Of a stretch of 64,000 bases of DNA, positions 8,950 to 9,244 are shown in pieces. The notes beneath the pieces are model-generated. The model was not told where the DNA came from. It did not search any database and saw nothing but the letters and a program-made list of their open reading frames with translations. This stretch comes from Planctomycetota bacterium (GTDB lineage Bacteria > Planctomycetota > Planctomycetia > Pirellulales > Lacipirellulaceae): positions 35,403 through 99,402 of the forward strand of contig JBCCXZ010000006.1 of NCBI GenBank assembly GCA_039190745.1, in the 5' to 3' direction. The position numbers and the translations under genes are program-made. How positions within the stretch are numbered: the first letter of the stretch is position 1; each line of letters opens with the position of its first letter.

Positions 8950-9017
8950 CCGAGGGTTTGTTTTCTTCCAACAGAAAGCTTGCCAAGACGCCGAGCCCAG
9001 TAAAGAATGCGAGAGTA

Positions 9018-9104
9018 ATGATAAGTCCCTCCAACAATTACCGGTTTAACTTTACTTGGTGCTACCTGTTTACGGGTAGCGGCCGGGCCGGAGGGTTTGT
9101 GTAG
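9018..9104 (+). CDS. putative aromatic-amino-acid attenuation leader peptide (28 aa, MISPSNNYRFNFTWCYLFTGSGRAGGFV)
   Basis: Manual translation ATG 9018 to TAG 9104; 7 aromatic codons (4 Phe, 2 Tyr, 1 Trp), 6 of them within 11 codons; lies between a putative promoter and a terminator upstream of DAHP synthase. Confidence 0.8.
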   Translation: MISPSNNYRFNFTWCYLFTGSGRAGGFV

Positions 9105-9131
9105 GCAGAGATTGCTCAGCACGAAGAACTC

Positions 9132-9170
9132 AAAGCCCCGGGCGCCCACGCGGCCCCCGGGGCTTTTTTT
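9132..9170 (+). terminator. intrinsic terminator (attenuator) upstream of aroF
   Basis: Stem aaagccccggg (9132-9142) / cccggggcttt (9156-9166) running into a T7 tract. Confidence 0.88.
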
Positions 9171-9244
9171 GTTGATTTGAACTGTTCCGATACGCGGCGA
9201 GGCGCCAACCTCGACGCAACCGTGCCCCAAACAGGGAGAAAGCC

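Follow-up and report, generated by a model that had tools for sequence, protein, structure and literature searches.

The window analysed here, a stretch of 64,000 nucleotides from a Planctomycetota bacterium with a G+C content of 64%, holds on its forward strand a gene for 3-deoxy-D-arabino-heptulosonate 7-phosphate (DAHP) synthase (positions 9245 to 10267, GTG start). Pfam matches to PF00793 (8.8e-78) and PF18152 (1.7e-20) identify a DAHP synthase of the I-beta fold carrying a ferredoxin-like regulatory domain at its N-terminus. Ahead of this gene, and on the same strand, lie a promoter-like sequence, a short upstream open reading frame (uORF) rich in codons for Phe, Tyr and Trp, and a strong hairpin followed by a T-run, the whole array extending from 8980 to 9170; the start codon at 9245 lies 81 nt downstream of the array and 140 nt after the uORF. 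An earlier note on this DNA, made without database searches, had read the array as an attenuator of the trpL/pheL type that senses all three aromatic amino acids. The first part of that reading is borne out by the conservation of the uORF, the fixed distance of the terminator, covarying pairings, constraint at the RNA level and a consistent tie to DAHP synthase genes, and on this comparative evidence the array is very probably a classical ribosome-mediated transcription attenuator controlling the DAHP synthase gene.

The uORF (9018 to 9104) consists of 28 codons and a TAG stop, and its core, YRFNFTWCYLF, has six aromatic residues in 11, just as the earlier note had described. It is the sole open reading frame (ORF) of 10-45 aa with at least five aromatic residues per nine on either strand of the 64-kb window. 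Related loci were found by scanning genome contigs with the window's DAHP synthase protein, and the comparative set comprises 80 loci with 65-83% identity, namely the best among 546 confirmed relatives. All are labelled either Planctomycetota or 'bacterium', and the groups sampled include the Pirellulales, Thermoguttaceae and Planctomycetales, plus one metagenome-assembled genome labelled Gemmataceae and one labelled Singulisphaera. Locus L009, without upstream DNA, was left out, such that 79 loci and the window supply 80 upstream regions. When a leader uORF is defined by an ATG start, a length of 12-45 aa, at least five Phe, Tyr or Trp per nine residues and a position at most 600 nt upstream, an aromatic-rich uORF precedes DAHP synthase in 63 of the 80 regions, compared with 0/80 on the opposite strand, 0-2/80 in 20 shuffles and 1/69 in a far-upstream segment. 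The aromatic-rich uORF before DAHP synthase is not a product of chance, and the conservation sought by aligning the upstream regions is present both in the uORF and, as detailed below, in covarying stems. Counts of codons, promoters and terminators given here refer to 64 leaders, of which 56 were aligned (alignment A1) and 55 were used for residue positions.

A wider search recovered further copies at -495 nt in L067 and at -504 nt in L015, as well as probable non-ATG starts in L059 and L063. At L040 (Kolteria novifilia), L028, L035, L037, L050, L054, L061, L064, L070, L072 and L077-L079, the 1200 nt ahead of the gene hold no aromatic-rich uORF. Though widespread in the phylum, the attenuator is not universal. 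By a crude call, the nearest upstream ORF lies on the same strand in 41 loci and on the opposite strand in 20, with none within range in 3, and the C-termini of these upstream ORFs are unrelated from locus to locus; because the upstream neighbor varies in this way, the element belongs to DAHP synthase and not to the gene upstream of it.

The promoter that the earlier note had placed at 8980-9008 is the sole promoter-like site between 8000 and 11000 (shuffle mean 0.2). A consensus scan identifies a -35 hexamer, TTGCCA (8980 to 8985), separated by 17 nt from a -10 hexamer, AAGAAT (9003 to 9008), that ends 9 nt before the uORF AUG. The same scan detects no promoter-like site between 9170 and 9245, downstream of the terminator, where a promoter would have counted against the earlier note's reading. 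Conserved upstream boxes are visible in A1 as well, with a TTGC-type -35 and a NANAAT -10 at about columns 38-66, and a promoter-like pair (at least 8/12 matches) stands beside the uORF AUG at 29 of the 64 loci compared with 5 of 640 control ATGs. The AUG follows the end of the -10 box after 6 nt in 19 loci and after 7 nt in 9. In a subset labelled Thermoguttaceae, a GACGAT motif located 9-10 nt before the AUG replaces the NANAAT box. Because the -10 box ends so near the AUG, the start site is expected on or beside the AUG itself, and the arrangement suggests that the leader peptide is read from a leaderless or near-leaderless RNA, a condition that is frequent among the leader peptides of Corynebacterium glutamicum.

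The leader region is strongly structured: 9010-9180 reaches a folding energy of -69 kcal/mol (z = -3.76), a stability matched by 0 of 200 shuffles. The terminator proposed within 9132-9170 is present as a strong hairpin and T-run, with a 5' arm (T5) at 9132 to 9146, a 3' arm (T3) at 9152-9166 and a T-run at 9164-9170, the latter two located by consensus scan, folding and A1 columns. Two further segments lie within the uORF. The first, R1 (9050 to 9068), is the 5' arm of an anti-antiterminator hairpin, and the second, R2 (9073 to 9093), can pair either with R1 or, via 9079-9089, with T5, and mimics the terminator 3' arm. The gctacc/ggtagc hairpin of the earlier note forms the core of R1:R2, in which 9061-9068 pairs with 9073-9080; this core of 8 bp and an extension of 6 bp amount to -19.1 kcal/mol for 9055-9092, and the pairing can be extended to 9050-9068 with 9073-9093 in the consensus of the window and its three closest relatives produced by RNAalifold. 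The run of regulatory aromatic codons, Y8 F10 F12 W14 Y16 F18 (TAC TTT TTT TGG TAC TTT; 9039 to 9071), leads into this hairpin, with F12, W14 and Y16 lying in its 5' arm and F18 in its loop. A stall on any of these three types of codon inside the R1 arm would consequently free R2.

As for the antiterminator, the earlier note was right that the end of the uORF can pair with the terminator 5' arm, but it placed the uORF strand at 9088-9099, whereas the conserved strand is 9079-9089, paired with 9135-9146. The alternative structures of the window were also folded. Without a ribosome, R1:R2, a hairpin spanning the stop codon (9096-9107:9113-9125) and the terminator (9132-9146:9152-9166) all form; with a ribosome on F12, W14 or Y16, R1 masked and T3 as yet unmade, the RNA adopts the antiterminator (9079-9088:9135-9145), which encloses the stop-spanning hairpin; and a ribosome placed on the stop codon gives the terminator. 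The stop-spanning hairpin (9096 to 9125) consists of 9096-9102:9119-9125 and 9104-9107:9113-9116 and is nested in the antiterminator. In minimum-energy folds the GGAGG tail pairs with sequence beyond the stop at 50 of 56 loci, with partners that differ and a mean z of -0.99; support for this hairpin is moderate. It may help to hold the antiterminator together, or a ribosome terminating at the stop codon may melt it. Another pairing put forward by the earlier note, between CCCTCC (9027-9032) and GGAGGG (9090-9095), does occur in the minimum-energy fold, but in that of the window only. As a functional element it was rejected, for CCTCC or CCCTC precedes the aromatic core in 1 of 64 leaders, the window's own.

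The same anatomy recurs across the leaders. R1 (typically CCCGC) directly follows the last aromatic codon, R2 (typically GGUCGCGGGGCC) ends 12 nt before the stop codon, and the terminator arms are typically AAGCCCCGAGACC for T5 and GGUCUCGGGGC for T3, the latter followed by a U-run. Since R2 closely resembles T3, both R1 and T5 are possible partners for it. Behind the uORF stop, and at a fixed distance from it, almost every one of the 64 leaders has a strong hairpin and T-run. A gap of 12 nt separates R2 from the stop codon in 43 of 56 leaders and in the window, which would suit a ribosome footprint reaching about 15 nt upstream, and the last base of R2 is the third of a codon in 51 of 56. Even in the distant leaders of L071 (labelled Gemmataceae) and L075 (labelled Singulisphaera), where the sequences are different, the segment at the uORF end still mimics the T3 arm of its own locus.

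Leaders have a mean length of 25.6 aa, and their peptide consensus is an aromatic core followed by [TS]-P-P-G-R-G-A-G-G-G, of which the tail G-R-G-A-G-G-G is the translation of R2 and the GGAGG stretch that follows it. Within this tail, the GGG codon has G at its third position in 56/56 leaders and the GGA codon has A there in 39/56, while GGG and GGA account for only 20% and 12%, respectively, of the Gly codons of the adjacent DAHP synthase genes; the third positions of the uORF tail are fixed at the level of RNA. Behind the last core Phe, Pro is found at +2 in 31/55 leaders and at +3 in 19/55, and Gly at +4 in 27/55. The full sequence Pro-Pro-Gly, a motif that stalls ribosomes without EF-P, is present in 11 of 64 leaders (e.g., L033, L034 and L068) and does not occur in that of the window. 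It coincides with the R1 helix sequence, and may be a by-product of RNA pairing or an additional pause site.

Covariation between the segments was assessed in two ways, by an alignment-free comparison of RNAduplex energies for segments of the same locus (own) against segments of different loci (cross), and by explicit column counts on A1 with controls made by shuffling (500) or by sliding the partner segments; these were chosen because MAFFT misaligns the R1:R2 registers between leaders. In the first comparison, the positive control T5:T3 is more stable in its own combination in 53/56 leaders (-21.62 vs -16.65 kcal/mol, p = 7.6e-11). The antiterminator pairing R2:T5 behaves alike (51/56, -18.65 vs -15.48 kcal/mol, p = 7e-9, 0/2000 permutations), as does R1:R2 (46/56, -11.31 vs -10.05 kcal/mol, p = 3e-5, 0/2000 permutations). 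Two negative controls are flat: R1:T5 is more stable in its own combination in 28/56 (-4.54 vs -4.45 kcal/mol, p = 0.47) and R1:T3 in 29/56 (-8.79 vs -8.65 kcal/mol, p = 0.26).

The column counts agree. For the antiterminator (columns 135-145:208-218), 79.0% of cells are paired, compared with 74.1% in shuffles (0/500) and 29-51% with slid partners; cells with double changes number 43 against 20.1 expected, and the covariation score is 0.252 against 0.179 in shuffles. The corresponding values for the terminator are 90.8% against 82.7% (0/500), 52 double changes against 15.2, and a score of 0.298 against 0.165. In its register a, R1:R2 is paired in 77.6% of cells against 72.0% (0/500), with 12 double changes against 5.0 and a score of 0.233 against 0.170. 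Applied to the window together with its closest relatives (L001, L004 and L048), RNAalifold returns an 18-pair R1:R2 hairpin and the terminator, and 7 of the 31 pairs of this four-sequence consensus contain compensatory changes. Eleven of the 64 loci (L008, L017, L020, L030, L033, L034, L046, L055, L066, L068 and L069) carry in addition a GCGAC pentamer in the spacer between stop and terminator, and in 10 of these its complement GTCGC is found in R2; the window lacks this feature. The two pentamers may form one more alternative pairing, by which R2 would be held at its 5' half.

From this arrangement we infer a site of transcription start, translation of the uORF, stalling within it and a response to each of the three amino acids, as follows. 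The promoter at 8980-9008 would direct transcription to begin on the AUG at 9018 or a few bases ahead of it, and the leader peptide would be translated from a leaderless or nearly leaderless RNA by a ribosome that meets the Phe, Tyr and Trp codons (9039-9071) in and just ahead of R1. When charged aromatic tRNAs are plentiful, the ribosome would run on to the stop codon at 9102, 12 nt past R2, and occlude R2, whereupon the terminator (9132-9146:9152-9166 and the U-run) would form and transcription would end before the gene. Were the leader not translated at all, R1 would pair with R2 and the terminator would form again. When charged aromatic tRNA is scarce, however, the ribosome would be expected to stall on the aromatic codons and to cover R1, leaving R2 (9079-9089) free to pair with the emerging T5 (9135-9146), such that the terminator would be blocked and DAHP synthase transcribed.

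Several observations weigh against this scheme or against the force of the evidence for it. Firstly, a leader is not seen in about 14-17 of the 80 regions, and in the window itself the gap between -10 box and AUG is 9 nt, not the usual 6-7 nt. Secondly, the negative control R2:T3 is not entirely flat (own more stable in 32/56, -11.60 vs -10.64 kcal/mol, p = 0.05 by Wilcoxon), and since it, too, gives 0/2000 permutations, within-locus base composition may inflate the own-versus-cross comparisons somewhat. Thirdly, in the column counts register a of R1:R2 stands only modestly above its slid controls (0.12-0.18), and register b was rejected as not above controls, with 58.5% of cells paired against 58.9% in shuffles (329/500), 10 double changes against 8.4 and a score of 0.173 against 0.162. 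RNAalifold run on all 56 leaders likewise returns the terminator only. Folding across the loci is also of limited force. When the ribosome is set on the final aromatic codon of the core, with T3 unmade, at least five T5 bases pair with the interior of the uORF in 58/64 loci, yet a control with the letters of T5 shuffled still reaches 67.8%, which makes such fold counts weak when taken alone, and an earlier folding of truncated RNA gave 46/64 loci with a mean z of only -0.96. Additionally, codons at position -4 and beyond, counted from the Phe codon that adjoins R1, may, in the canonical leaders, sit too far from R1 for a ribosome stalled on them to reach it, as judged from known ribosome footprint sizes. 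Finally, the duplex energies in the window (-10.1 kcal/mol for R1:R2, -18.2 for R2:T5 and -27.2 for T5:T3) make the terminator more stable than the antiterminator. As the terminator wins at equilibrium, the attenuation model must rest on co-transcriptional kinetics, as in trp.

How many amino acids such a leader would read is a separate question, and here the claim of the earlier note that one leader integrates Phe, Tyr and Trp is supported, though not proved, by the codon content: Phe is present in 64/64 leaders, Tyr in 62/64 and Trp in 59/64, all three occur together in 57/64, and each occupies position-specific sites. The response to each amino acid, in contrast, is a prediction from those codons. 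A leader contains five to nine aromatic codons, with means of 3.81 Phe, 1.89 Tyr and 1.20 Trp residues. If the Phe codon adjoining R1 is taken as position 0, Phe occupies that position in 52/55 leaders and position -2 in 48/55, Trp occupies position -3 in 32/55, position -1 is Tyr in 18 and Phe in 10, position -4 is aromatic in 93%, and position -5 is Tyr in 24 (n = 55). Codon choice is skewed as well. All four Phe codons of the window's leader are TTT, as the earlier note had remarked; of the 627 Phe codons in those long ORFs of the window that have high G+C at third positions, 139 (22%) are TTT. Across the leaders TTT accounts for 175 of 244 Phe codons (72%), compared with 71 of 400 (18%) in the adjacent DAHP synthase genes, and TAT for 50% of Tyr codons compared with 33%.

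These same data feed an alternative in which the attenuator is retained but senses only or mainly Phe, the Tyr and Trp codons being tolerated or merely slowing the ribosome. Phe dominates the leaders in number, it holds the two most fixed of the positions adjoining R1 (0 and -2), and the strong shift toward a rare codon is confined to Phe, that in Tyr being much smaller. There is also a precedent: attenuation at the experimentally tested aroR-aroF leader of C. glutamicum, which reads Phe-Tyr-Phe, is relieved by Phe limitation and unaffected by the availability of Tyr (Neshat et al. 2014, as cited in the review PMC11802643). Against sensing of Phe only stand the occurrence of Trp, a normally rare residue, in all but five of the leaders and with a fixed position, the near-universal presence of Tyr, and the placement of W14 and Y16 of the window inside the R1 arm, where stalling would directly free R2. 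Reasoning from the pathway points the same way, as DAHP synthase feeds all three pathways, and a signal from one amino acid would match its role more poorly. We consider sensing only or mainly of Phe somewhat unlikely, and the codon pattern supports sensing of several inputs among which Phe is the strongest. The fullest version of the proposal, namely that a single leaderless peptide, conserved across the sampled Planctomycetota, reads the charging of tRNA-Phe, tRNA-Tyr and tRNA-Trp and thereby gates the first step of the shikimate pathway, is offered tentatively, as a real possibility that falls just short of an even prospect.

Other explanations dispense with the sensing ribosome altogether. 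Alternative structures by themselves are silent on what chooses between them, and the switch could in principle be set by a ligand or a protein, as in a riboswitch, T-box-like tRNA binding or a TRAP-like protein. At threshold, however, no Rfam family matches, T-boxes and known riboswitches included, and the same holds for leader families such as Trp_leader, Phe_leader, His_leader, Thr_leader and Leu_leader. With E values up to 10, a search of 8600-9600 against Rfam 15 likewise assigned no family, the best match being to His_leader at 24.9 bits against a gathering threshold of 49, on the minus strand and covering the terminator only, and 10 related loci gave 0 matches at the gathering threshold. 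A mechanism independent of translation would, moreover, fail to explain why the start codon, the reading frame (as seen in the end of R2 in 51/56), the position of the stop (43/56) and the identity of the aromatic codons are conserved, and on these grounds such a switch is highly improbable.

Scarcely more credible, and if anything slightly less so, is the idea that the uORF is conserved for the sake of a small functional peptide, such as a membrane or regulatory micro-protein rich in aromatic residues. The recognisable consensus of core and tail is what such a peptide would be expected to show. Yet the tail is fixed at synonymous third positions, by way of Gly codons that are rare elsewhere, and its nucleotides covary with the terminator arm, while at the level of protein Val can take the place of Ala (GCC to GTC or GTT) and both the N-terminus and the exact order of the aromatic residues vary. 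No family match was found for the window peptide in Pfam or for eight leader peptides in NCBIfam 20 at E values up to 10. Lastly, the hairpin and T-run might be the terminator of the S9-family peptidase gene immediately upstream (6748-8949, forward strand), with the aromatic uORF a chance ORF in the spacer, and although this gene is co-directional, ends 183 nt before the terminator stem and has no other terminator-like site between 8949 and 9132, such that one terminator could serve both transcripts, this explanation is effectively refuted by the recurrence of uORF and terminator in 63/80 regions behind upstream genes that are unrelated to one another and in 20 cases lie on the opposite strand, by the conserved promoter between upstream gene and uORF, and by the covariation of the uORF tail with the terminator.

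A few features of the surrounding sequence complete the description of the locus. Downstream, a gene for a 647-aa protein lies on the minus strand (10272-12215); Pfam recognises in it only a LysW-like zinc ribbon at the N-terminus (PF21344 at 4.3e-7), and the remainder of the protein is rich in Pro, Ala and Glu. As this gene is convergent, DAHP synthase is the sole gene behind the attenuator. Two further ORFs were considered as candidates and set aside: a minus-strand ORF of 128 aa (8844-9230) is without support from Pfam, its best hit (E = 0.3) scoring 11.8 bits where the cut-off is 27, and a 48-aa version of the uORF extended to a TTG codon (8958-9104) has no family match and would place the conserved promoter inside the coding sequence. 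A mini-ORF of three codons, ATG CGA GAG TAA (9007-9018), overlaps the -10 box, and its stop overlaps the start of the uORF as TAATG. It would be relevant only for RNA begun further upstream, such as readthrough transcripts of the peptidase gene.

If the attenuator operates as proposed, it would add a layer of regulation to DAHP synthase beyond the allosteric control suggested by the ferredoxin-like N-terminal domain, in a phylum whose gene regulation is, to our knowledge, little characterised. It would constitute a natural multi-input sensor, in which one peptide integrates three end products at their common first step, and its geometry is clear: position-specific Phe, Tyr and Trp codons, the rare TTT codon and, in R2, a replica of the 3' arm of the terminator. 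Because classical attenuation requires a ribosome close behind RNA polymerase, its conservation would be genetic evidence for tight coupling of transcription and translation, and the element would offer a simple genetic handle on such coupling in planctomycetes, a group in which, for Gemmata, a spatial separation of the two processes has been proposed. As the motif is not in Rfam 15 or NCBIfam 20, a covariance model would improve the annotation of many planctomycete genomes. The element might also find use as an expression switch responsive to aromatic amino acids.

The logic of the element is that of the Escherichia coli leaders trpL, pheL (of pheA) and pheST and of hisL, with four segments in which 1:2 pairs, 2:3 forms the antiterminator and 3:4 the terminator. 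Common to these leaders and the planctomycete element are regulatory codons located in or beside segment 1; the stop codon, which in the known leaders is placed such that a ribosome there blocks segment 2, is predicted to act likewise in the planctomycete element. They differ in that trpL, pheL and pheST each sense one amino acid through a uORF led by a Shine-Dalgarno sequence and control genes of terminal branches or a tRNA synthetase, whereas the planctomycete element stands before the first common step. Integration of several end products of a branched pathway by a single leader is familiar from thrL (Thr and Ile) and ilvL/ivbL (Leu, Val and Ile) of the Enterobacteria. These concern different amino acids and a different phylum, and they are proteobacterial families with Rfam models.

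Closer in function are two elements that precede DAHP synthase genes elsewhere, which are likened to the planctomycete element as functional analogues on the basis of their published descriptions. The aroR leader of C. glutamicum (Actinomycetota) is likewise part of a ribosome-mediated attenuator with a mixed aromatic leader peptide before a DAHP synthase gene (PMC11802643). Its peptide, however, carries only Phe-Tyr-Phe and no Trp, whereas planctomycete leaders have a longer aromatic run that includes a position-conserved Trp, and they differ from aroR also in a conserved Gly-rich tail whose coding sequence supplies the antiterminator strand. The second, the uORFC-13-1 motif of Acholeplasma (Mollicutes), is a predicted uORF with 24 representatives, found only upstream of aroF (Brewer et al. 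2021, PMC8632094). It shares with the planctomycete element the promoter boxes, the Phe codons and an adjacent intrinsic terminator, and both are computational predictions; it differs in a U-run coding for at least one Phe and in a ribosome-binding site, with no Tyr or Trp component described (PMC8632094). In the literature searched, neither an attenuator nor a leader peptide was found to be reported for Planctomycetes, which are named in one study solely within statistics on the distance between leader and gene (PMC4833913). Taken together, these comparisons indicate that while the mechanism proposed here is a textbook one, the attenuator appears to be undescribed for the Planctomycetota, and that it stands out by its position-specific run of codons for three amino acids, by a uORF that is likely leaderless, and by a peptide tail whose coding sequence doubles as the antiterminator strand.

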